The translations under genes were made by a program, and so were the position numbers. From a virus (Duplodnaviria; Caudoviricetes): DNA of 64,000 nt. Below the pieces are notes generated by a model that saw only the letters and a program-made list of their open reading frames with translations, did no database searches and was not told where the DNA came from. Position 1 is the stretch's first letter; each line of letters opens with the position of its first letter. This document shows positions 30,959 through 61,109 of the stretch, one piece after another. Where the stretch lies: the IMG/VR virus record IMGVR_UViG_3300044652_000032, positions 31,183 to 95,182 of that record. One strand, 5' to 3'.

Positions 30959-31220
30959 TAGGTGTCTCTCCTTTCAAGAGAAGGGTTCGTAGCCGGTTGA
31001 AGGTTTTAGAGAACGCCGTAAAACTCGGCCAATCTCTGGTTGAGACGTGTTTGCTCCCGTAGATTCAGCAGCGCGGCCCACTCTTCCGCGTGCTGGACAT
31101 AAACATACGTCCCGTCAAGAAGTTCCCCGTAGTGTTGTCTATAACCCGGTAACCGCACTTGAACACCACTGTGTAGCGGACGAAATCTTTTTTCTGCTCA
31201 GTCATCTTCGTTCTCCTTTC

Positions 31221-50048: not shown

Positions 50049-50465
50049 ATGCCACACAAACAGTCAGATGCGACGCCGCCCACGGCCATGCTGCCCTTTA
50101 TGGAGCAGGAGCGCGCGGTGGACTACGCCGACGCCGACCGCAAGGCCGCGAATCCGTCGGGGTACGCTGCCACGAAGCCGAGCCGTCCGGCCTTCCCCGG
50201 CCCCGCCTACCGTGAAGAGTTCGACTACGAGCGGCTGACGGGGCAGATGGCGGCGGTGTACCGCGTGATGAAGGACGGGCGCAAGCGGACTATTCGTGAG
50301 GTGCGCGACGAAGTAGGTAAAGGCTCGGAGACGGGAATAGCGGCGGCAATACGCGCCTTGCGCAAGCCGGAGTACGGCTCGCACCGTATTGAGAAGGAGC
50401 GCGTGGGCGACCCGCGCAGCGGATTGTGGGCCTATTACATGATAGTGGAAGGAGAGAAAGCCTGA
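50049..50465 (+). CDS. Winged-helix protein
   Basis: VYRVMKDGRKRTIREV...SETGIAAAIRALRK. Confidence 0.6.
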   Translation: MPHKQSDATPPTAMLPFMEQERAVDYADADRKAANPSGYAATKPSRPAFPGPAYREEFDYERLTGQMAAVYRVMKDGRKRTIREVRDEVGKGSETGIAAAIRALRKPEYGSHRIEKERVGDPRSGLWAYYMIVEGEKA

Positions 50466-51598
50466 TGGAGTTTTCAATAAAGAGAGACAACCTGAGTCGT
50501 GAGCTGGGCGCGCTGGCAGCCGTCCCTCTCAAGAACTCGCCGCTACCGATCCTCGAGTGCGTGCACATCGAGGCGCTGGCCGGGCACCGTTTGCGGCTGA
50601 CGGCCACCAGCCTGCAGTCCACGCTGACCTGCGAGGTGCAGGCCGACTCCGTCGTGGAGGAGGGTGCCGTGTGCGTCACAGTCCGGCGACTGGCCGACCT
50701 CGTGCGGCTGATGCCCGAGGGGCTGCTCACCGTGAGCACGGACGCGCAGGACTACCTCGTGGTCAAGGGCCAGCGCAGCCGCCACCGTCTCCCCGCCATG
50801 AGCGCGGACGCTTGGCCGCCGCAGGCCGTGCCCGCCCCGGACGCACTGTGGACGGAGGTGCCCGCCGGACGGCTCCGCGCCTTGCTCAAGGGCGTGGAGT
50901 TCGCCGTCGCCCCCGAGGAGGACAGCAAGTTCAACCTGCGCGGCGTCAAGATGGAGATAGAGGGCAATCGGATGCGGATGGTGGCCACGGACGGCCACCG
51001 TCTATCGATGGCCGAGTCGGGGCTGGACGTGCTGACGCTGGCGGACGCCGATGTGCTGGTGCCGGAGCACGGCACGCAAGACCTCGCGCGTCTGCTGGGC
51101 GACGAGGAGCCTGAGCAGATGGTAGGCGTTGCGGCGTCGGCCAACAAGCTGTTCTTCCGCGCCGGAGCGCGCCTGCTGGCCGTCACGCTGCTGGTGGGCG
51201 AGTTCCCGGAATACCGTGGCATCCTCAAAGAGTACGGCAAGTACACGTCGGCGGCCAACTTCCCCGCCGACGACCTCAACGGTGCCGTCAGGCGCGCGCT
51301 GTTGGCTGCGGACGGCAAGAGCGCTGCGGTGCGCTTCCGCTTCGACGCCGGCATGCTGGTCATAAGGGCGCAGACGCAGGAGAGCGGCGAGGCCGAGGAG
51401 TTCTTGGTCTCGGACTGGACGGGCGAGGACGGCGCGCACCTCTCGGTCAACGCCAAGTTCCTTTTGGAGTTCCTCTCGGCGGTGCAGGACGTGCGCTGGG
51501 AGTGCGGCGGGCCGCGCGACGCCCTCCACCTCGTCGGCACGAACAAGGAGGGTCTGCAGGTGCGGTATGTGCTCATGCCGCTGGACGTTCCGGAATAG
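50465..51598 (+). CDS. dnaN: DNA polymerase sliding clamp (beta subunit)
   Basis: LPILECV, MVATDGHRL, GEFPEYR, NAKFLLEFL, YVLMPL; 377 aa. Confidence 0.93.
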   Translation: MEFSIKRDNLSRELGALAAVPLKNSPLPILECVHIEALAGHRLRLTATSLQSTLTCEVQADSVVEEGAVCVTVRRLADLVRLMPEGLLTVSTDAQDYLVVKGQRSRHRLPAMSADAWPPQAVPAPDALWTEVPAGRLRALLKGVEFAVAPEEDSKFNLRGVKMEIEGNRMRMVATDGHRLSMAESGLDVLTLADADVLVPEHGTQDLARLLGDEEPEQMVGVAASANKLFFRAGARLLAVTLLVGEFPEYRGILKEYGKYTSAANFPADDLNGAVRRALLAADGKSAAVRFRFDAGMLVIRAQTQESGEAEEFLVSDWTGEDGAHLSVNAKFLLEFLSAVQDVRWECGGPRDALHLVGTNKEGLQVRYVLMPLDVPE

Positions 51599-51605
51599 GA
51601 GGCTG

Positions 51606-52031
51606 ATGATGACGCTGGAGATAACGGCGGAGAGCGCGGGGCCGGACGTGGACGCCCTCGTCCACAAGCACGTGATGGGCGTCGTGGTGGACGAGGCGCG
51701 CTGCCGCGAGTGCGGGTGGTACATGGCCGAACGCCCCGAAGAGGGGTGCGTGCCCGGCAACTGCAGTATGCGCCCGAAGCCGTGCGGCTACGGCCAGCCT
51801 CCGCCCTACACGGCAGACCTGCGCCTCGACCACGAGGTCTTGAAGCACGTGACCGCGACGTGGGCGTTGGAGCAGCGGGCGCTATTCTGGACGGCGCTGG
51901 AGCAGAGTCTGTACGCACGTATGGGCCTCGGCAACTTGAACGAAGCCTTCGCGCCACTGCCCTTGATCAGCTACTATCAACCGGGCGACTTTTCACGGGC
52001 GGCACTCCGAGCCTTAGGAAAAAACGAGTGA
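51606..52031 (+). CDS. Phage ABA-sandwich-like protein
   Basis: AGPDVDALVHKHVMG...PPYTAD...SRAAL. Confidence 0.5.
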   Translation: MMTLEITAESAGPDVDALVHKHVMGVVVDEARCRECGWYMAERPEEGCVPGNCSMRPKPCGYGQPPPYTADLRLDHEVLKHVTATWALEQRALFWTALEQSLYARMGLGNLNEAFAPLPLISYYQPGDFSRAALRALGKNE

Positions 52032-53389
52032 GCCAGCAGAGCACAGAACTGGAGTGGTACGGGTGCTTCGACCGCCCGTGGGCGCGCGACCGCGATATCG
52101 TGGCCGAGGCATTCGCGCACCCGGCGAAGTACGCGCGCAACCTCATCTTCAAGATTTACGAGCACGCCCACGCCAAGAACTGGCTCCGTGCAGGAGATTC
52201 GGTACTCGACCCCTTCGGCGGAGTGGCCATGGGCGGGCTGCCCGCCTACCTGCTCGGCGCACACTGGACGGGCGTGGAACTCGAAGAGAAGTTCGTGCGT
52301 CTGGGCGAGCGCAACATCCAGTTGTGGATGGGCCAGTACTCCATGCTCGGCACGGTCGGCTCGGCAAGGTTGCTGCGGGGCGACTCCCGCTGCCTGTTGG
52401 ACGTTATCGGCAACGACTACTCGCTGGCAGCGAGTAGTCCTCCTTACACCGCCAACGTCAAGGGCGACTACGACCCCGAAGGCCGTGACGATCGCCGCGA
52501 AGCTGAGCAAGGGCGCGGCTGCTTCCGAGGCAGCGAGAGTTATGGCGAGTCCGAGGGGCAGATGGGGCGCATGACCGAAGGCGACTTCGGTATGGCGGTA
52601 AGTTCACCGCCATACAACGGCGACGCCGAATCGGGTGAGCGCCACCGCGAACGCGAGGAGCGTCGTGCGGCTGTGGGGCACCGCAATAGACTCGATGAAA
52701 ATTCGTCCGGCGGTTTTAACGGCGGCAGGGATTACGGCACGGAGGGTGGTCAACTCGGGACGATGTCGGAGGGGTCGTTCAGCGCCGCCGTGTCGAGTCC
52801 GCCGTATGCCGACGGCTGCCGGCACACGGGAGGCGAGGACACAGCCCCCGCGCACATCGAGGGGAGCAAGACTACGGCGTACGGTGCCGACTACGGGGTG
52901 GCGATTTCATCGCCACCCTACGATAAGAGCGGGACGCACCCTAATCTAGTTAAGGACGACGAGTGGGGCAAAGCCGGAAGCGATATCATGGCGCGTCAGC
53001 CGGAAGATCGTCGCGAGGGCTACGTCGGTTCGGAGGGGCAGATGGGCGGAGCCGACGACTTCTGGAGCGCTGCGCGCCTCGTGCTGGAGCAGACCTACGC
53101 CGCGCTGAAGCCCAACGGCCACGCCATCTTCGTCTGCAAGCGTTACGTCCGTAACCGTGAGATTGTGGAGTTCCCGCAGCAGTGGGCCGAGCTGTGCCGC
53201 GCCGTGGGCTTCAAGGACGAGTGCTGGCACCGTGCGTGGTTCACGCGCGAGCACGGCACGCAGCTCGGCTTGCTCGGCGAGGATAAGGAGATCCGCACGC
53301 AGAAGAAGTCGTTCTTCAGGGCGTTAGCCGAGAAGCACGGAAGCCCCAGAATTGACTGGGAAGACGTGATGTGTTTTAGTAAGGATTGA
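52028..53389 (+). CDS. Amino (N4-C/N6-A) DNA methyltransferase with four tandem SSPPY modules
   Basis: HPAK, VLDPFGG (motif I), GVELE, GDSR, SSPPY x4, LKPNG. Confidence 0.85.
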   Translation: MSQQSTELEWYGCFDRPWARDRDIVAEAFAHPAKYARNLIFKIYEHAHAKNWLRAGDSVLDPFGGVAMGGLPAYLLGAHWTGVELEEKFVRLGERNIQLWMGQYSMLGTVGSARLLRGDSRCLLDVIGNDYSLAASSPPYTANVKGDYDPEGRDDRREAEQGRGCFRGSESYGESEGQMGRMTEGDFGMAVSSPPYNGDAESGERHREREERRAAVGHRNRLDENSSGGFNGGRDYGTEGGQLGTMSEGSFSAAVSSPPYADGCRHTGGEDTAPAHIEGSKTTAYGADYGVAISSPPYDKSGTHPNLVKDDEWGKAGSDIMARQPEDRREGYVGSEGQMGGADDFWSAARLVLEQTYAALKPNGHAIFVCKRYVRNREIVEFPQQWAELCRAVGFKDECWHRAWFTREHGTQLGLLGEDKEIRTQKKSFFRALAEKHGSPRIDWEDVMCFSKD

Positions 53390-53411: not shown

Positions 53412-54176
53412 ATGAGTACGAACGTAGAGCAACCGAAGCAGGGCACGCTGGCTCTCAACGTCGAGGTCAAGTCCGCCAAGGACTTGAAGTTCAAGGAAAA
53501 CAACACGCGCCTCCACGATAAAAAGAATCTGGAGGCGATAGAGAAGTCCGTGGAGGAGACGGGCTTCAACCGCAGCATCTTCATAGACGAGGACGGCACG
53601 GCACTGGCCGGTAACGGCACGCTGCAGATAGCGCAGAAGCGCGACGCCAAGGTCATCATCGTTGACGTCGAGGACGAGAACACGGTGGTGGCCGTCCGCA
53701 AGCGCGGAATGACCCCGCTGGAGAAGGAGCGCGCCGGGCTGTGGGACAACCGTGCGTCCGATTTGAGCAAGAACGACAAGAAGGCGATTGCCCGTCTCAC
53801 GCAGCAGCAGCCCGCGCAGATGCTGCTCGGCGGCATCTTCACCGAGAAGGAGCAGGAGAAGCTGCTCAAGGCGCAGGCCGACGCCCTGCCCCTCGGCGCT
53901 GGCGGCAAGGACGACGCCGAGCGGGAGACGCAGAACGCGGCGGTGCGCGGCGACAGCACTGTACGCATGGTCAGTCTCTTCCTGACGACCGCCGAGGGCG
54001 AGCTGAACCACGGCGACTTCGTCCGGCGGGTGCGCGCCCTGCAGTCCTCGCTCTTCCCCGAAGCCAAGACCATTACGGACGCCGTCGTGGCGATAGTCAA
54101 CCGCGCGCGCGACGAGTGGCTGCGTAAGGACTCGGAGGAGAACGTCGCCGCCGAAGCGGAAGGCGCGGCTGTCTAA
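53412..54176 (+). CDS. ParB/Srx-like domain protein
   Basis: NTRLH...IEKSVEETGF..SIFIDED..ALAGNG. Confidence 0.75.
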   Translation: MSTNVEQPKQGTLALNVEVKSAKDLKFKENNTRLHDKKNLEAIEKSVEETGFNRSIFIDEDGTALAGNGTLQIAQKRDAKVIIVDVEDENTVVAVRKRGMTPLEKERAGLWDNRASDLSKNDKKAIARLTQQQPAQMLLGGIFTEKEQEKLLKAQADALPLGAGGKDDAERETQNAAVRGDSTVRMVSLFLTTAEGELNHGDFVRRVRALQSSLFPEAKTITDAVVAIVNRARDEWLRKDSEENVAAEAEGAAV

Positions 54177-54188
54177 GGGAGGCACGGG

Positions 54189-55160
54189 ATGCGTACTATT
54201 ACGGTAGAGGCGGCGTTGACCGACCGCGAGTGCGAGGCGCGGCTGGGTACCTTCGTTGACGAGCACGACTACGACCACGTTGTCACGGGCGAGAGCGTGA
54301 CGGTGCTCAAGCCGGACGGACGACCCTTGCTCGTGTACGTGCACGACGTTTTGCCCCGCTCGCTGTGCGAGGCCGCGTTCGCTGTCTTCAAGACCGTGGA
54401 CTATGAGGGCGGCGGGAGCAACCGCGGGTACGCCTCCGGCATACTGACGAACGATGACCTCGACCGCACGGAGGGTGCACCCGACACCGTCCTCATCCGC
54501 GAGGGGAGCACCCGCTACGTCAAAATCAAGCAGGACGGCACCGTCAGCAACACGACGCGCGCAGCGGACAGCCCTACGGCCATCGTCGGCTACTTCGACC
54601 GCGCCGCGCGTTTCCCCTACTGCCGCCAGACTGCCTTTACGATGGAGAACCCGGAGCGCTGGGCCGAGGCCGTCCCGTTCATCCGCGCTGTCAGTGAAGT
54701 CTTCCGTAACTACGCCCCGGAGCAGTACGAGGCGCAGCGCCAGTTCGTGGAGATGTGCCACCCCGACTTCATCATCCCCGGAACAATCTTCTCGACGCTG
54801 ACGCTCAACCGCAACTGGACTACGGCAATTCACAAAGATTCCGGAGATTATTCCTCCGGATTAGGCTGTATGTCCGTCCTTCATGCCGGCGAGTACACGG
54901 GCGGCCTGCTGTGCTTCCCGAAGTACAAGGTGGCGGCGGACATGCGCACCGGAGGAGTCCTGCTCGCGGACGTACATGAGGCCCACGGCAATACGAAAAT
55001 CATCGGTGTACCGGGGCGTCACCTCCGCCTCTCCTGCGTCTTTTATGCACGCACCAACATTATAGAGTGCGGTTCGATGGAGTTCGAGCTGGAGCGTGCC
55101 AAGCGCGTGGGCGACCGTCTGGCAACCGAACACGCCACGGAGCAGCCCAAGTTATTCTGA
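54189..55160 (+). CDS. TET/JBP-family 2OG-Fe(II) dioxygenase
   Basis: GYFDR...CRQTAF, FSTLTLNRN..TAIHKD (HxD), DVHEAHGNT, RLSCVFY. Confidence 0.88.
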   Translation: MRTITVEAALTDRECEARLGTFVDEHDYDHVVTGESVTVLKPDGRPLLVYVHDVLPRSLCEAAFAVFKTVDYEGGGSNRGYASGILTNDDLDRTEGAPDTVLIREGSTRYVKIKQDGTVSNTTRAADSPTAIVGYFDRAARFPYCRQTAFTMENPERWAEAVPFIRAVSEVFRNYAPEQYEAQRQFVEMCHPDFIIPGTIFSTLTLNRNWTTAIHKDSGDYSSGLGCMSVLHAGEYTGGLLCFPKYKVAADMRTGGVLLADVHEAHGNTKIIGVPGRHLRLSCVFYARTNIIECGSMEFELERAKRVGDRLATEHATEQPKLF

Positions 55161-55861
55161 TGCAAAAGACAATCATGCCAGAGCTAACGGTGGACAGACG
55201 CACCGGACTCGTAATTCGGAGTGACCCCGCCTTCCACGACCGCGAGATACTCCGCGAGGTGCGCCACGCCTACCGCAGCGTGCCCGTCCGCCTCGACGAC
55301 GTCATACTCGATCTCGGCGCACACATCGGGGCCAGCGCCTGCTTCTTCGTAGGGCAGGGTGCTCGCCGCGTCGTTGCGGTGGAAGCCAGTCCCGAAAACT
55401 TCGCGCTGCTCGAGCGCAACGCCGAGGGCTGCGCCATCCTTCCCATACACGCCGCCGTGAACGACGACGGATCGCCTGTCACCTTTCACCTCCATCCCAA
55501 GGGCCACGCTGCGATGAACAGCGTGGTGCCGAGTCGCCGACCGCACCGCGAAGTGACGGTGCCCGGCGTGGCGCTGGATTATCTGCTCACGACTTACGAG
55601 CCGACCGTGCTCAAGATGGATATCGAGTGGGCAGAGTACGGACTCTCCGCGCTGCATCGTCTGCCCGACCGCGTCCGTGTTATAGCCGCTGAACTGCACA
55701 TGCTCATGTGGGGTACGAACGAGCGGCGGGAGGAGGCACAGCAACGCGGCTTGGCCTTAGAGGAATCCTTCCTGCGGCAAGGATTCCGATCCTTGTGGCG
55801 CGAGGAGAAGCGCGGACGCTGGAATAGGGTGTACGCCGTATGTGGGACATACGAACGATGA
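55160..55861 (+). CDS. FkbM-family SAM methyltransferase
   Basis: ILDLGAHIG, VAVEA.PEN, LKMDIE.AE. Confidence 0.88.
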   Translation: MQKTIMPELTVDRRTGLVIRSDPAFHDREILREVRHAYRSVPVRLDDVILDLGAHIGASACFFVGQGARRVVAVEASPENFALLERNAEGCAILPIHAAVNDDGSPVTFHLHPKGHAAMNSVVPSRRPHREVTVPGVALDYLLTTYEPTVLKMDIEWAEYGLSALHRLPDRVRVIAAELHMLMWGTNERREEAQQRGLALEESFLRQGFRSLWREEKRGRWNRVYAVCGTYER

Positions 55862-56865
55862 CTATGACGGTTGACCACTGGAAGGGCTTCGTGGACTTCG
55901 CTCGGCTGGACAAGGCGGCGGGCGGCCCCGACTCGCATATGAAGACGGTGGTGCATCTCTCGCACGACGTCTCCGTTGAGGAAAAGGTGTGGCGTGCGGG
56001 GCTGTACGCCGGAACGGTTTACAACGTACCGACTGCCGAGGTTCTTTGGCAACACTGGCCGTGGCACCGCGTCCGTCACATAGACGGGCTGGCGGGGCTG
56101 GAAGCGTGGATAAAGACAAACTGGGACGGCTTCGGCTTCCGCCGCGAGCGGCGTGCCGTCCGCTCCCCGGCCAAGATGGCCGAGAACATCCGTTCGTTGC
56201 GCGACGCGGTGACGGATATCGTCCGGGCGCTGGAGCGCGGGGCGGATTACGGCGGGGTGTGGGACGCGTGCTCACGCGTGAAGTACGTGGGGCGCTACGC
56301 TCTGCTGAAGATGACGGAGACGCTGCGGCAGATGCGGCTGACGGACGCCATAATTCCCGACCTGCGTCCGGAGGGGGGCTGGTCGCCGCGCGAGGGCTTG
56401 AGCCTGTTGTGGACGGATTCTGCGTCCGTGGCGCTCCTCACAGCCGACGGGCCGGACACCGCCGAGCGCCTCCACCGTATCAACCACCTCGCCGCCTCCA
56501 CACAGCACCGCATAGCCGCCGAGTACGGGGTGGAACTGGACAACTACGAGTTCCAAGTCTTCTGCTGCGACTACAAGCAGGCGTGGGCCGGACGGCAGTA
56601 TCCCGGACGCTCCCTCGACTCCGAGCTGGAGTACGCCGCCAAGGTCTGCTCGCACCCTTGGGCCGGGGACTTCGCGCTGGGGATGTGGGAGGCGCGCGCA
56701 GCGCTCTTCCCCGCATGGTCGTTGGGCGAGCGGCAGGGGTGGTCGGGCGTGCGCCCGGAGTTGGGCGAATGCTGGCGACGGCATGGTTATCTTTGGGATG
56801 GTAGTTCCTATGACTACGTTACTACTAGGTCTCTCGCTGAACCGGAGCGGTATGCGGCTGTATAA
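55858..56865 (+). CDS. Amino acid:DNA transferase / aGPT-pyrophosphorylase-like (HhH glycosylase fold)
   Basis: VGRYALLK..E, CDYK, QYPGRSLD, WEARAALFP...GE motifs; context of TET and kinase. Confidence 0.7.
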   Translation: MTMTVDHWKGFVDFARLDKAAGGPDSHMKTVVHLSHDVSVEEKVWRAGLYAGTVYNVPTAEVLWQHWPWHRVRHIDGLAGLEAWIKTNWDGFGFRRERRAVRSPAKMAENIRSLRDAVTDIVRALERGADYGGVWDACSRVKYVGRYALLKMTETLRQMRLTDAIIPDLRPEGGWSPREGLSLLWTDSASVALLTADGPDTAERLHRINHLAASTQHRIAAEYGVELDNYEFQVFCCDYKQAWAGRQYPGRSLDSELEYAAKVCSHPWAGDFALGMWEARAALFPAWSLGERQGWSGVRPELGECWRRHGYLWDGSSYDYVTTRSLAEPERYAAV

Positions 56866-57298
56866 CATCACGCCCGGACTCTTCCTTCGCGGGCACACCC
56901 GACGGCTCGACCCCGAGGTCGTGGTCGTCGCGCTGCGCGAGGCCAACGTGGGGCGCGTGGTCTGCGTGGCACCGACAGCCGACGCGGCACTGCGCGCCCG
57001 CTTGAAGACCACGGACATCGCCTACGAGCACGTCCCGTTTGCGGATGGCGCGCTCGTGCCCGAACATGTGCTCGTTCCGCTGACACGTCGTTTGGCAGAT
57101 GAGCTAAAGACGACGCAGCGGGGCGTACTCGTGCATTGCAACGCGGGACGCAACCGCGGGGCGCTCGTTGCGGCGATGGTGCTGGTGCGATTGGGATGGA
57201 CGGCTGATGCTGCGCTCGCGCAAGTCCGACGGGTGCGTCCCGGCGCACTGGCCAACACCGCCTTCGCGGATTACTTGGCTTCGGGGTGCATCTGGTGA
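56852..57298 (+). CDS. Dual-specificity/PTP-family phosphatase
   Basis: VLVHCNAGRNR (CX5R). Confidence 0.88.
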   Translation: MRLYNITPGLFLRGHTRRLDPEVVVVALREANVGRVVCVAPTADAALRARLKTTDIAYEHVPFADGALVPEHVLVPLTRRLADELKTTQRGVLVHCNAGRNRGALVAAMVLVRLGWTADAALAQVRRVRPGALANTAFADYLASGCIW

Positions 57299-57591
57299 GG
57301 AGGTAATGATGACGGACGTACCGAAAGTGCGCTCGCTCGTTGTAGGCGCTGCGCTGGTGTTAACCCTTTTGATTCTGGCTTGGAGGTGAACCTTATGTTG
57401 ATAGACACGGACAGGATTCGCGAGGTGCGAACCGTTAACGAAAACGGCCACATCACCGTGCGCCTCGGTATGGACGACGGCACGTGGCTCGAGCTGGGCG
57501 CGAAGGGTAGCGTGCACAACTACGTACGCTTCGACGGTCAGCCCGCCGAGCACCGCCGCAGCTTCGATTTCAAACAGGAGGAGCAGCCCGT

Positions 57592-58194
57592 ATGACCCGC
57601 GTGCTCGCCATTACGGGTGTTCCGGGCGTCGGCAAGAGCACCTGCATGCTCAACGTGATAGCCGCTCTCGGCGGACAGGACAGGCGCTCGCGCTACGGCC
57701 TGCTGGACTACGCTGTGTGCCGCAACGTGGCGGTACTCGGCGTGTACGACGACTCGTCTCCATTTGGGGGAACCGATAAATTAGCGATGAACGTGCAGCA
57801 GCACGCCGAGGACTTCGTCCGGCAGGTGGACGCCAACGCCGTCCCGCTCGTGGACGCCATAGCCTTCGAGGGCGACAGGCTCTGCGGGTCAAAATTCCTT
57901 ACGCTCTGCCGCGCCCGTGCCGACACGCGCATCGTCGTGCTGGAGACGGACTCGGCGTTGCTGAAAGACCGGCGCGACCTCCGCTCGTTCGAAGTCGGCA
58001 AGGAGCAGGACGCCACGTGGCTGCGCGGGCGCGAGAGTAAGGTGGCTGGTGTAATAGCCGAGTTCGCAGCCGAGCGTCGCACGGTCAACACGCTCGCGGA
58101 GAACACGACGCTGGCCGGGGAGCTGGCCGCGTGGCTGCGCTACGAGACCACGGTGGAGATACCTCAGCCCGTCAAGACACTACGCCTTTTCTGA
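57592..58194 (+). CDS. P-loop nucleotide kinase (DNA-modification-associated)
   Basis: GVPGVGKST, LGVY, FGGTDKLAMNVQ, FEGDRL. Confidence 0.8.
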   Translation: MTRVLAITGVPGVGKSTCMLNVIAALGGQDRRSRYGLLDYAVCRNVAVLGVYDDSSPFGGTDKLAMNVQQHAEDFVRQVDANAVPLVDAIAFEGDRLCGSKFLTLCRARADTRIVVLETDSALLKDRRDLRSFEVGKEQDATWLRGRESKVAGVIAEFAAERRTVNTLAENTTLAGELAAWLRYETTVEIPQPVKTLRLF

Positions 58195-58671: not shown

Positions 58672-59238
58672 ATGAGCGACGAACTGTGGATGCAGACGGC
58701 CAACGGGCGCAAGTTCCCGCTGTTGGATCCGCGCCCCGAGCACGTCTTCGCCGACGACATTATCTCGGCGCTGCCGCTGATACCGTGCTTCACTGGCGCG
58801 CAGAAGGCCGGAAAGTGGGACTGGCCGTACAGCGTAGCGCAGCACTGCACTCTGGTCTCGCGGCTGGTAGCACCCGAGCTGGCGCTGGACGCGCTGCTGC
58901 ACGACGCGTGGAAGGTTTACGTCGGCGACCTCACGCGCCCGCTCAACCACCTGCTCAACGACATCAGCAACGGACGCTGGGGCGACGTCCGCAACCGCAT
59001 CCGTCAGGCCGTGGCCGTGCGGTTCGGCGTTCGATGGCCGCTGCCCGACGCCGTGGAGGAAGCCGACCGACTGGCGCGTGCCATAGAACTGCGCGACGTT
59101 ATGCCCAAGGTGCCGGAACTTTGGGACTTAGTGCTACCGGATCCGCCCGCCAACCGCGACATCTTCGTCTGGTCGCCCGATACGACTCGTAAGACCTTCG
59201 CCGCACGCTGGCGTGAGTTACAGCCGGAGATATTTTGA
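58672..59238 (+). CDS. HD-domain 5'-deoxynucleotidase (YfbR-like), atypical active site
   Basis: YSVAQHC, LLHDAWKVYVGD, EADR. Confidence 0.8.
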   Translation: MSDELWMQTANGRKFPLLDPRPEHVFADDIISALPLIPCFTGAQKAGKWDWPYSVAQHCTLVSRLVAPELALDALLHDAWKVYVGDLTRPLNHLLNDISNGRWGDVRNRIRQAVAVRFGVRWPLPDAVEEADRLARAIELRDVMPKVPELWDLVLPDPPANRDIFVWSPDTTRKTFAARWRELQPEIF

Positions 59239-61109
59239 TGCAGCTATCCTTACTGACCAAGCCCGCTCCCACGCCCGACGCCGCGCCGCGTTGGCAACCG
59301 CCGCGCACGCTTCCGTCGTTGCAGGGTGTCAAGCGGATTTCTTGGGACTGTGAGACGTCAGGACTGAATCCCTTCAGCGACCGTGCGGTCGGTTTCAGTC
59401 TGGCACTGCGTCGCGGCGGGGATGTCGAGCAGCACTACTTGCCCGTGGGGCACAGCGAAGGCAACCTGCCGCTGGCGCTGGTGCAGGAGTGGGCGGCGCG
59501 TGAGCTGCCGGGTAAGGACGTCGTCTTCGCCAACGCAAAGTTCGACGTGCATTTTGCGCTCCGCGCCGGTATAGACTTTGAGGCCATAGGCGTCCGCCCG
59601 CACGACGTCGCCTTCAAGGATGCTCTGTTGGACGACGAGCGCGTCGCGGGGCACGGCCTCGACCAGATGGCGGCTCGCTACTGCGGCGAGGGCAAGATGC
59701 CCTTCCCCGGCGCGCACATGGACGCCATGCCCTCGTGGCGGGTTGCGCCCTACGCCATGCACGACGCCCGCGTGACGCTGCTCGTGGACGAGGCTACGGA
59801 TCCGCTGATACGCGAGCAGGGTCTGGAGCGGGTGTTGGCGCTTGAGGACGCGCTCATCTACTGCACCTGCCATATTGAGCGGGTAGGCTCGCGAATTGAC
59901 GTAGAGAAGTTGGACAGGTGGCGACGTGAAGCTCATCAGGCGTTGGAGGGATGTCTGTGGCAGCTGCACAGCATGACGGGGCTGCAGATTAACCCCACCA
60001 GCCCCGAAGACCTTATGCGCCTCTGCCGTCAGACGGGCGTACCTATCCCGAAGGAACGGACGGGGGCAACGGCGCGTCACCCGCAGGGGCAGGTCAGCTT
60101 CACGGACGAGGTGGTGGAACGCCTTGCCGCCGGTAACCCGGCATTCGCCGTCGCGTTGCGCGCCCGCCGCGTAAAGAGTCTGCTGGTCAAATTCTTGGAC
60201 AAGTTCTGGGACTCGCTGGACGGTGACGTACTTCGCGCGCAGTACCACCAGATGAAGACCGATGACGAGTCGGGCACGGTCTCGGGGCGCTACTCCTCCG
60301 CGGGAGGCGGTGCGGAGGACAACGGTTACAGCTTCAACGCGCAACAGACAATCAAGCCCTCGGCGCAAAAGAAGGACGGCACGGACAGGTGGACAATCCG
60401 CCGACTGTTCATCCCCGCCGACGGGATGCGGTACTTCGCCGTGGACGCCAAGCAGATTGAGTACCGATTGTTCGGCCACTTCGCCGGAGCGCAACGCATT
60501 ATAGACGCCTACAACAACGACGAGCTGACCGACATGCACCAAGTGGCCACCGATATCGCGGCACAGCACGCACCGCAGATGGCCGCGCAGTGGGGCGCGA
60601 AGTTCCGCGACCACGTTAAGAACGTCAACTTCGCCCGGCTCTACGGCGCGCGGCCCAAGAAGATAGCCTCCATGCTGGGCATTACCGAGCGGGACGCCGA
60701 AGCGTTCGTCGCCGTGCTGGACAAGGTCTTCCCCGAGGCCGCGCCCTACCTGCGGCGCAAGGCTGCCGAGGCGGAGCAGCGCGGCTTCGTCACCACGCTG
60801 CTGGGACGCCGCGCCCGCTTCACCAGCGAGCAGAACCGGCGCGGCACGCACTCGGCGGTGAACAGAGTCATACAGGGTACGGCAGCCGACCTCATGAAGT
60901 TGAAGATGCTGCGGGTGTACAACGAGCGCAAGACGCTGGGCATTACGGCCATCCGCCAGACCATCCACGACGAGCTGGACGGCGACGTGCTGCCCGACCC
61001 CGTGTACGAGCGGCGGATGGCGGAGTGCTTCGCCGTGCAGGAGGTCAAGCTCAAGGTGCCTCTGGCGTGGTCGTTGGCTCTTGCGGATAACTGGTTGGAG
61101 GCGAAATGA
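59238..61109 (+). CDS. polA: Family A DNA polymerase with 3'-5' exonuclease
   Basis: DCETSGL, NAKFD, YAMHD; DAKQIEYR, KNVNFARLYG, NRVIQGTAAD, HDE. Confidence 0.95.
   Translation: MQLSLLTKPAPTPDAAPRWQPPRTLPSLQGVKRISWDCETSGLNPFSDRAVGFSLALRRGGDVEQHYLPVGHSEGNLPLALVQEWAARELPGKDVVFANAKFDVHFALRAGIDFEAIGVRPHDVAFKDALLDDERVAGHGLDQMAARYCGEGKMPFPGAHMDAMPSWRVAPYAMHDARVTLLVDEATDPLIREQGLERVLALEDALIYCTCHIERVGSRIDVEKLDRWRREAHQALEGCLWQLHSMTGLQINPTSPEDLMRLCRQTGVPIPKERTGATARHPQGQVSFTDEVVERLAAGNPAFAVALRARRVKSLLVKFLDKFWDSLDGDVLRAQYHQMKTDDESGTVSGRYSSAGGGAEDNGYSFNAQQTIKPSAQKKDGTDRWTIRRLFIPADGMRYFAVDAKQIEYRLFGHFAGAQRIIDAYNNDELTDMHQVATDIAAQHAPQMAAQWGAKFRDHVKNVNFARLYGARPKKIASMLGITERDAEAFVAVLDKVFPEAAPYLRRKAAEAEQRGFVTTLLGRRARFTSEQNRRGTHSAVNRVIQGTAADLMKLKMLRVYNERKTLGITAIRQTIHDELDGDVLPDPVYERRMAECFAVQEVKLKVPLAWSLALADNWLEAK

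Follow-up and report, generated by a model that had tools for sequence, protein, structure and literature searches.

What base is made by a phage operon in which a predicted thymine dioxygenase, a P-loop kinase and a DNA transferase are accompanied by a phosphatase and a methyltransferase? The question is raised by IMG/VR virus record IMGVR_UViG_3300044652_000032 (Duplodnaviria; Caudoviricetes), a complete genome of 95,182 bp with direct terminal repeats. The window, meaning the whole stretch of DNA that was analyzed, is its final 64 kb (64,000 nucleotides, positions 31,183 to 95,182 of the record). At window positions 53412-58194, on the plus strand, it encodes a ParB-like protein, a TET/JBP dioxygenase, an FkbM-family methyltransferase, a transferase of the ADDT/AADT family, a Cys-based phosphatase and a P-loop kinase. 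An earlier reading of the letters without database searches (the sequence-only reading) had made these six domain calls; five score above the Pfam curated cut-offs and ParB was recovered via PHROGs. Thymidine hypermodifications guard phage DNA against restriction and CRISPR nucleases, and the enzymes that make them are becoming tools for DNA labelling and sequencing.

The presence of six enzymes with intact catalytic motifs was counted in favor of a complete hypermodification operon, and the operon as a whole probably hypermodifies thymine in the phage's own DNA after replication, by a five-step scheme. In the first step, predicted by homology and shown for homologues in the literature, the ParB-activated TET enzyme would convert some of the thymines of duplex DNA into 5-hydroxymethyluracil (5hmU) by hydroxylation. 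The kinase would then phosphorylate the new hydroxyl, giving 5-phosphomethyluracil. The transferase would flip the base so that Cys243 attacks C6, the phosphate departs and a nucleophile joins the exocyclic methylene. As gene linkage suggests, this nucleophile would bear a phosphate of its own, which the adjacent or fused Cys phosphatase would remove from the DNA-bound adduct. In the last step FkbM would O-methylate the adduct at one of its hydroxyls. An uncharacterized O-methylated polyol or cyclitol derivative of thymine, probably ether-linked, is expected to result and to shield the DNA from host nucleases. That the phosphatase and FkbM act in just this way is a close call that falls somewhat short of probable.

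Source of the hydroxymethyl group

The dioxygenase gene (54189..55160) encodes a 323-aa member of the TET/JBP family of 5-methylpyrimidine dioxygenases, with thymine as the predicted substrate. It matched Tet_JBP PF12851 at 2.4e-23 and 82.6 bits (cut-off 34.9). The Fe(II)/2-oxoglutarate residues H215-x-D217 and H263/H266 and the 2-oxoglutarate-binding R280 are invariant in 43 homologues. Twelve nucleotides upstream lies the gene for the ParB-like protein (53412..54176, 254 aa), the predicted activator of the dioxygenase; the same ParB-TET adjacency occurs in 44 of 85 TET loci. Although this protein matches the 'ParB-like' PHROG families phrog_620/723 (3e-17), no Pfam family was matched, ParB_N included. 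R33, S46, G51 and D112-N113 are kept in the alignment, and box II reads GNGT instead of GERR/GHxR, so that it lacks arginine. ParBs of this kind activate their cognate T-dioxygenase (O'Toole et al. PNAS 2026, PMC13229309), and the GNGT box II agrees with the published result that activation does not require the NTP-contact residues.

TET continues for about 29 residues beyond its last conserved cysteine (C294), and this tail appears to match the C-terminal extension seen in the subclass of T-dioxygenases that depend on ParB, clade C1. Three marks of clade C1 are present, namely an adjacent ParB, a genome lacking a C5-methyltransferase and the tail after C294, the comparison with the published subclass being one of features. 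A close published system is 5mYOX176/ParB176 (PMC13229309), in which ParB also lies directly upstream of a TET/JBP enzyme with a C-terminal extension, a P-loop kinase and an AADT are linked, and a C5-methyltransferase is missing. The likeness is one of gene context, not of sequence comparison with 5mYOX176, and a difference is that the window ParB lacks the box-II arginine of canonical ParBs. The published work ends at 5hmU and makes no mention of a phosphatase or FkbM.

The complete genome was searched for other routes to a hydroxymethylated pyrimidine. It contains no match to PF00303 (the ThyA family, including dUMP and dCMP hydroxymethylases), PF02511 (ThyX) or PF00145 (C5-methyltransferase). 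A Pfam sweep of 88 further open reading frames (ORFs) genome-wide revealed no glycosyltransferase, pyridoxal phosphate (PLP) enzyme, radical S-adenosylmethionine (SAM) enzyme or sugar/cyclitol enzyme. The sequence-only reading had seen no dUMP hydroxymethylase, C5-methyltransferase or glycosyltransferase in the window, and this holds across the complete genome.

To place the cluster among its relatives, 48 IMG/VR records with 55 loci carrying the transferase subfamily of the window were compared (loci are given as L numbers). A ThyA-like gene is present in 30 of the records, TET in 12 and both in none (Fisher p 2.7e-7, the records not being phylogenetically independent). Since the two never occur in one record, TET by all appearances substitutes for the pre-replicative hydroxymethylase. 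On gene content, this exclusivity is direct comparative support for conversion of thymine to 5hmU in DNA.

Because the genome has no ThyA-like gene, ThyX, C5-methyltransferase, glycosyltransferase or inositol-phosphate synthase, a post-replicative route is the best reading. We consider it likely that the core of the pathway runs from thymine in DNA to 5hmU, 5-phosphomethyluracil and an adduct. The sequence-only reading had proposed just such a fully post-replicative route, and it gains from the intact catalytic residues, the lack of another source of 5hmU or 5-methylcytosine, the structural match of the transferase model described below (Z 17.4) and the exclusivity of TET and ThyA-like genes. 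The idea itself is not new and has already been published as a concept. Some AADT/kinase contigs without dUMP hydroxymethylase were found to carry TET_JBP, from which in-DNA conversion of thymine to 5hmU was inferred as the start of hypermodification (Lee 2021, PMC8989533). ParB-dependent phage T-dioxygenases have since been demonstrated and their linkage to P-loop kinases and AADTs noted (O'Toole 2026, PMC13229309).

PF12851 does not distinguish enzymes acting on thymine from those acting on 5-methylcytosine, the substrate of phage clade A/B TETs, and a methyltransferase gene lies just upstream of the cluster. Both facts would suit a cluster that hypermodifies cytosine. Such a substrate is very improbable, however: that upstream gene matches an N6/N4 amino-methyltransferase family only, linkage to ParB and an extended C-terminus characterize T-dioxygenase clade C1, and TET is interchangeable with dUMP-hydroxymethylase-like genes. 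5-Methylcytosine was rejected as the substrate since the complete genome lacks a C5-methyltransferase.

The transferase and its phosphatase partner

The kinase gene (57592..58194) encodes a 200-aa P-loop protein, predicted to be a 5hmU DNA kinase, with Walker A motif GVPGVGKST. It matched Ploopntkinase3 PF18751 at 3.2e-10 and 40.3 bits (cut-off 27). A kinase accompanies TET in 38/85 TET loci, and it is present in all TET-type modules in which the transferase is paired with the phosphatase. The window kinase also matches phrog_800, which is labelled 'terminase small subunit', probably a mis-annotation.

The transferase (55858..56865, 335 aa) matched ADDT PF18724 at 1.9e-8 and 34.8 bits (cut-off 26.2), so that profile searches place both this protein and the kinase in the families to which the sequence-only reading had assigned them. 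Its subfamily comprises 342 representative clusters and is recognized by the motifs GGPDxHM, LLCDYKQ and RQYPGRSxDSE. The AlphaFold model (pLDDT 92.3) superimposed on PaMx11 gp46/PUGT (8Z2M), the only solved AADT, with Z 17.4 and an rmsd of 3.1 A over 246 residues at about 13% identity. The next structural matches were helix-hairpin-helix (HhH) DNA glycosylases (Z 5-9). The model thus supports the earlier expectation that 55858..56865 is an HhH-fold transferase. Cys243, which lies inside LLCDYKQ, is invariant and falls on the LC(K/D) motif when aligned with the solved AADT sequence; the active-site Cys is essential in clade-2 AADTs (Lee 2021, PMC8989533).

The mechanism by which a kinase and an AADT act together has been described, including the use of a hydroxyl nucleophile in ViI (Lee 2021, PMC8989533). 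Pseudomonas phages PaMx11 and M6 (PMC8989533, PMC11472151) likewise use first a kinase (5-HMUDK) and then an HhH-glycosylase-like transferase that has a Cys in its active site, which the fit of the ADDT model to PUGT reflects. They differ from the window phage in that their 5hmU is made before replication by dUMP hydroxymethylase, whereas TET would supply it here. Their donor is glycine, followed by flavin, PLP, radical-SAM or acetyl tailoring, whereas the window transferase has a Cys phosphatase partner and, at about 13% identity to PUGT, its own subfamily motifs.

That partner is a 148-aa protein of the dual-specificity phosphatase (DSP) type (56852..57298), which matched DSPc PF00782 at 3.1e-9 and 37.2 bits (cut-off 33.5). 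Its P-loop reads HCNAGRNRG. In 46 distinct homologues C119 and R125 are conserved in 100% and the candidate general acid D88 in 95%. The model (pLDDT 96.2) has a standard DUSP fold, with TM ~0.8 to DUSP7, DUSP10 and PRL. The best match of the DSP profile was PDB 25xa_A ('Dual specificity protein phosphatase family protein', E 6.5e-20). PDB 25qc_A and 25xa_A have neighboring codes and neither is among the Foldseek matches listed; a single recent study of an ADDT-DSP pair of this sort might have yielded both.

A DSP homologue lies directly downstream of the transferase in 51/55 loci of this subfamily, and the closest transferase relatives (54% and 45% identity) have the gene order TET-ADDT-DSPc-small ORF-kinase. 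The two proteins are fused in one frame in L098/L099, and ADDT-DSPc fusions make up 8/10 long database relatives; in L115 DSP is fused to the kinase instead. DSP follows this subfamily whether 5hmU comes from TET or from a ThyA-like enzyme, and whether the kinase is Ploopntkinase3 or AAA_33/HMUDK plus HMUDK_hel. Conversely, loci that combine a kinase with ADDTs of other subfamilies, including the syntenic L001, L003 and L005, are without DSP. Because DSP tracks the transferase subfamily across sources of 5hmU and kinase types, its distribution assigns the phosphatase to the transferase chemistry, not to the kinase. The sequence-only reading had included a phosphatase that might optionally edit the product. 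The phosphatase itself stands (PF00782), but the optional role gives way to that of a near-obligate and sometimes fused partner of the transferase. A host-directed protein phosphatase unrelated to DNA modification was also considered and rejected, since DSP is fused to the transferase and to the kinase in relatives.

These distributions also bear on the possibility that the route ends as in M6, ViI and PaMx11, with an ordinary amino acid. FkbM would then methylate a carboxylate or amine, and the phosphatase would be an eraser that returns unreacted 5-phosphomethyluracil (or pyrophosphoryl-uracil) to 5hmU. All characterized AADTs use amino acids or polyamines (PMC8989533, PMC11472151, PMC13458397), the window genome holds no donor-making enzyme, and the DSP-kinase fusion of L115 suits a kinase/phosphatase cycle too. 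An eraser would be expected to travel with the kinase, however, whereas DSP keeps to one ADDT subfamily irrespective of which of two unrelated kinase types is present and is missing from other loci with ADDT and kinase. This subfamily is moreover accompanied by inositol-phosphate synthase or radical-SAM/SPASM genes in place of PLP, flavin or acetyl tailoring enzymes. We therefore regard an ordinary amino acid adduct as unlikely. The pairing of ADDT and DSP, with FkbM, marks an uncharacterized variant whose product is probably not an amino acid adduct.

The ADDTs of L001, L003 and L005 have no similarity to the window ADDT that phmmer could detect, which argues that the transferase itself was exchanged in the window phage relative to its syntenic phages, for one of a different subfamily. 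A quick maximum-likelihood tree placed the TET-type ADDTs in several separate groups interleaved with ADDTs of modules carrying ThyA-like or inositol-phosphate synthase genes. One TET-type clade is nested in a clade linked to that synthase, and the window ADDT, together with that of L086, is sister to a ThyA-type fragment. Among cultured phages, tblastn with the ADDT returned nothing at E <= 1e-5 beyond weak partial matches in Microbacterium and Gordonia phages, and tblastn with DSP returned only P-loop-level matches in actinophage PTPs. Single-protein queries of viral contigs with TET or ADDT returned no loci.

Donor and methylation

Myo-inositol-1-phosphate synthase (MIPS; PF01658, E 1e-34 to 1e-40, 350-450 aa) is encoded in 24/48 related records, nearly always immediately upstream of ADDT. 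The usual module order is MIPS-[FkbM]-ADDT-DSP-kinase-HMUDK_hel-ThyA-like. A radical-SAM/SPASM gene adjoins the ADDT-DSP pair in place of MIPS or alongside it in L096 (9396-10385) and in L101, L103, L116, L124, L125 and L130. No PLP, flavin or acetyl tailoring enzymes were found beside this ADDT subfamily, its neighbors being MIPS or radical-SAM/SPASM genes. This renders it doubtful that the adduct of the sequence-only reading is an amino acid, as the ADDT-DSP relatives adjoin an inositol-phosphate synthase and not amino-acid tailoring enzymes.

In the phages that carry MIPS, the simplest reading is that the donor would be inositol phosphate, joined through a hydroxyl, with the phosphatase then removing the phosphate. 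More generally, gene neighborhood suggests that a polyol or cyclitol with a phosphate, and not an amino acid, is the donor. Inositol-phosphate and phosphoinositide phosphatases are found among the enzymes with the Cys-phosphatase fold. The FkbM enzyme proper O-methylates FK506 at a cyclohexyl hydroxyl, and sugars are O-methylated by others of its family. Each of these facts suits a cyclitol or polyol adduct better than an amino acid. Phage-made myo-inositol phosphate would be the most likely donor in half of the relatives, and a host metabolite would serve in the window phage.

We propose tentatively that this ADDT subfamily consists of phospho-polyol:DNA transferases rather than amino-acid transferases; they would join a phosphorylated cyclitol or polyol to activated 5hmU by an ether bond, after which DSP would strip the phosphate on DNA and FkbM would O-methylate the ring. 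If so, the pathway would end in a cyclitol- or polyol-thymine bearing a methyl group, a kind of DNA base not described before. The published repertoire consists of amino-acid or polyamine donors, and a phosphatase-welded ADDT subfamily would add to it both a class of donor and an enzyme activity on DNA. The fusions of DSP to DNA-acting enzymes favor the DNA-bound adduct over the free donor as its substrate, and we infer that it acts there. New here are the swapped transferase subfamily, the near-obligate phosphatase partner and the inositol link in relatives. A literature search for phage DNA hypermodification that involves a phosphatase or inositol found no relevant paper, which is not proof that none exists.

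Parts of this chemistry have precedents. In Salmonella phage ViI, where gp247 is the serine:DNA transferase for 5-NeOmdU, a hydroxyl rather than an amine attacks the exocyclic methylene, giving an ether-linked adduct. The ViI donor differs in being serine, which is then decarboxylated by a PLP enzyme, and neither a phosphatase nor a methyltransferase is involved. In the synthesis of base J by kinetoplastid JBP1/2 and JGT, conversion of thymine to 5hmU likewise takes place in already replicated DNA, and the hydroxyl then receives a polyhydroxylated ring. There, a glycosyltransferase acts directly on 5hmU with UDP-glucose, without kinase, ADDT or phosphatase. The MIPS-ADDT-DSP-kinase modules of uncultured phages share both the ADDT subfamily and the DSP partner with the window, which differs in having no MIPS.

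Several observations weigh against the scheme. A PF01658 search of the complete window genome found no MIPS, and MIPS is present in 0 of 12 TET-type records (p 7.8e-5), so the donor in the window phage may differ from that of its MIPS-linked relatives. The GTA-like tail domains of the phage (DUF2460, Phage_BR0599, Rcc01698_C and phiJL001 gp84) loosely hint at an alphaproteobacterial host, and a control Caulobacter genome has no MIPS either. The score of the transferase is modest (34.8 bits against the Pfam ADDT profile). Four residues before Cys243, where the solved AADT has Glu and clade-2 enzymes have their essential Glu, the window enzyme has Gln, and the subfamily Q or E. The residue directly after Cys243 is an invariant Asp in the subfamily. 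The order of the genes is compatible with three targets of DSP, namely the DNA adduct, the free donor and unreacted 5-phosphomethyluracil. Finally, modules of the L073 lineage, described below, show that TET can suffice as the partner of an FkbM enzyme.

The absence of MIPS could reflect a lower demand, as TET modifies only part of the thymines, a supply from the host or the use of another phospho-metabolite. Thymine modification by TET was 1-35% in assays (O'Toole 2026, PMC13229309). The MIPS-less TET-type ADDTs retain 75 of the 79 columns that are conserved among MIPS-linked ADDTs, and there is therefore no sign of an altered donor pocket. The idea that a switch in specificity separates the two groups of ADDT was considered and found unsupported, as the 4/79 columns that differ show mostly conservative changes.

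The FkbM gene (55160..55861) encodes a 233-aa SAM-dependent methyltransferase that matched PF05050 at 4.7e-12 and 46.8 bits (cut-off 22.7) and contains the motif-I-like glycine-rich SAM motif LDLGAHIG. FkbM occurs inside modules of this ADDT subfamily in 7/55 loci. Its position directly after TET, with a TGATG overlap, would also suit two parallel fates of 5hmU, in which FkbM makes 5-methoxymethyluracil directly and kinase, ADDT and DSP build a second adduct elsewhere. Ten AT-rich loci with ParB_N, TET and FkbM only, located by terminase without kinase or ADDT, speak for such a division. They belong to a single lineage, however, and their FkbMs are more distant from that of the window (1e-7 to 1e-10; L051 6e-15) than its nearest relatives, those of L105, L108 and L134 (E 1e-18 to 6e-20). 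The latter lie between ADDT and DSP in TET-ADDT-FkbM-DSP-kinase modules. In four ThyA-type modules (L092, L094, L110 and L115), moreover, the FkbM gene is flanked by MIPS and ADDT. We consider parallel fates quite improbable and retain FkbM as the predicted last enzyme of a single pathway.

The minimal ParB_N-TET-FkbM module was observed in contigs of 31% GC, at L073 (9369-11597) and in L025, L035, L051, L052, L055, L068, L074, L083 and L085, which constitute one lineage and not ten independent cases. It is a candidate route to 5-methoxymethyluracil.

Operon layout and related phages

All genes between the sliding-clamp gene (50426-51598) and PolA (59235-61109) are on the plus strand with minute gaps or overlaps. 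Starts were reset from junction reading and homologue alignments to ATG 55160 for FkbM and ATG 56852 for DSP. The FkbM start forms the TGATG overlap with the TET stop, the ADDT start (ATG 55858) forms an ATGA overlap and agrees with the earlier note, and DSP overlaps ADDT by 14 nt. A small conserved ORF of 71 aa (57380..57595) lies between phosphatase and kinase, with a homologue in the same position in L086/L087 (phmmer 1e-7), and its stop overlaps the kinase start (ATG 57592). Because of these short overlaps the array looks translationally coupled, which bears out the tightly linked run between methyltransferase and PolA seen in the sequence-only reading. The cluster is flanked upstream by an N6/N4 methyltransferase-like gene (51710-53389, plus strand) and downstream by three small ORFs and a dNMP phosphatase gene, then PolA. 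The upstream gene encodes 559 aa and matches the N6/N4 DNA methylase family at residues 135-199 only. It is an insertion relative to the syntenic phages, in which ParB comes after the clamp gene or one small gene.

The ADDT subfamily relies on either TET or dUMP hydroxymethylase and in many cases on inositol-phosphate synthase too. With its complete genome, the window phage (about 63% GC) provides the fully post-replicative version in a single operon, a compact set for heterologous reconstitution. Syntenic phages of ~93 kb, whose TETs are 55-60% identical, share the frame clamp - ParB - TET - ... - ADDT - ... - kinase - PolA with other accessory genes. Since different cassettes occupy one site in these relatives, the region between TET and kinase is, on gene content, a hot spot where phages swap DNA chemistries. 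The site holds a PALP (PLP) enzyme, ADDT and a 579-aa radical-SAM protein in L001 (8991-13608), and three unknown genes and ADDT in L005 (8990-12621). L003 (8984-14503) has an N6-methyltransferase, two unknown genes and ADDT there, and a Mom-family protein (PF25680) before PolA.

A related and tractable system is the cultured Caulobacter phage Cr30 (NC_025422), which encodes TET (gp129), ADDT (gp123), MIPS (gp121) and a Ploopntkinase3-like kinase (gp114). Unlike the window phage it has MIPS and a canonical Pfam-type ADDT (179 bits). A search of Cr30 with the DSP alignment profile found no DSP. Two of its genes carry other annotations: gp129 (L143 709-2037), a 'putative SNF2 DNA repair protein', matches Tet_JBP at 8e-21, and gp114 (L143 9057-9602), a 'terminase small subunit', is similar to the window P-loop kinase (6e-16).

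Close relatives of the window phage were also sought more widely. The cluster had no megablast match among 50,697 phage records, and PolA had only 28-30% identity to many unrelated phages by tblastn. Two scans of 185,579 prokaryote genomes, with the tail hub protein and with the ADDT alignment, yielded no relative and therefore no prophage copy. About 25 early-region ORFs of the phage are without a Pfam match. Elsewhere in the genome (1-31182; window 24300-47300), Pfam matches include a DRAT-like ADP-ribosyltransferase (4e-5), a 2'-5' RNA ligase superfamily protein, a DnaJ-domain protein, several HNH endonucleases, an HD_4 domain protein and a DnaB helicase.

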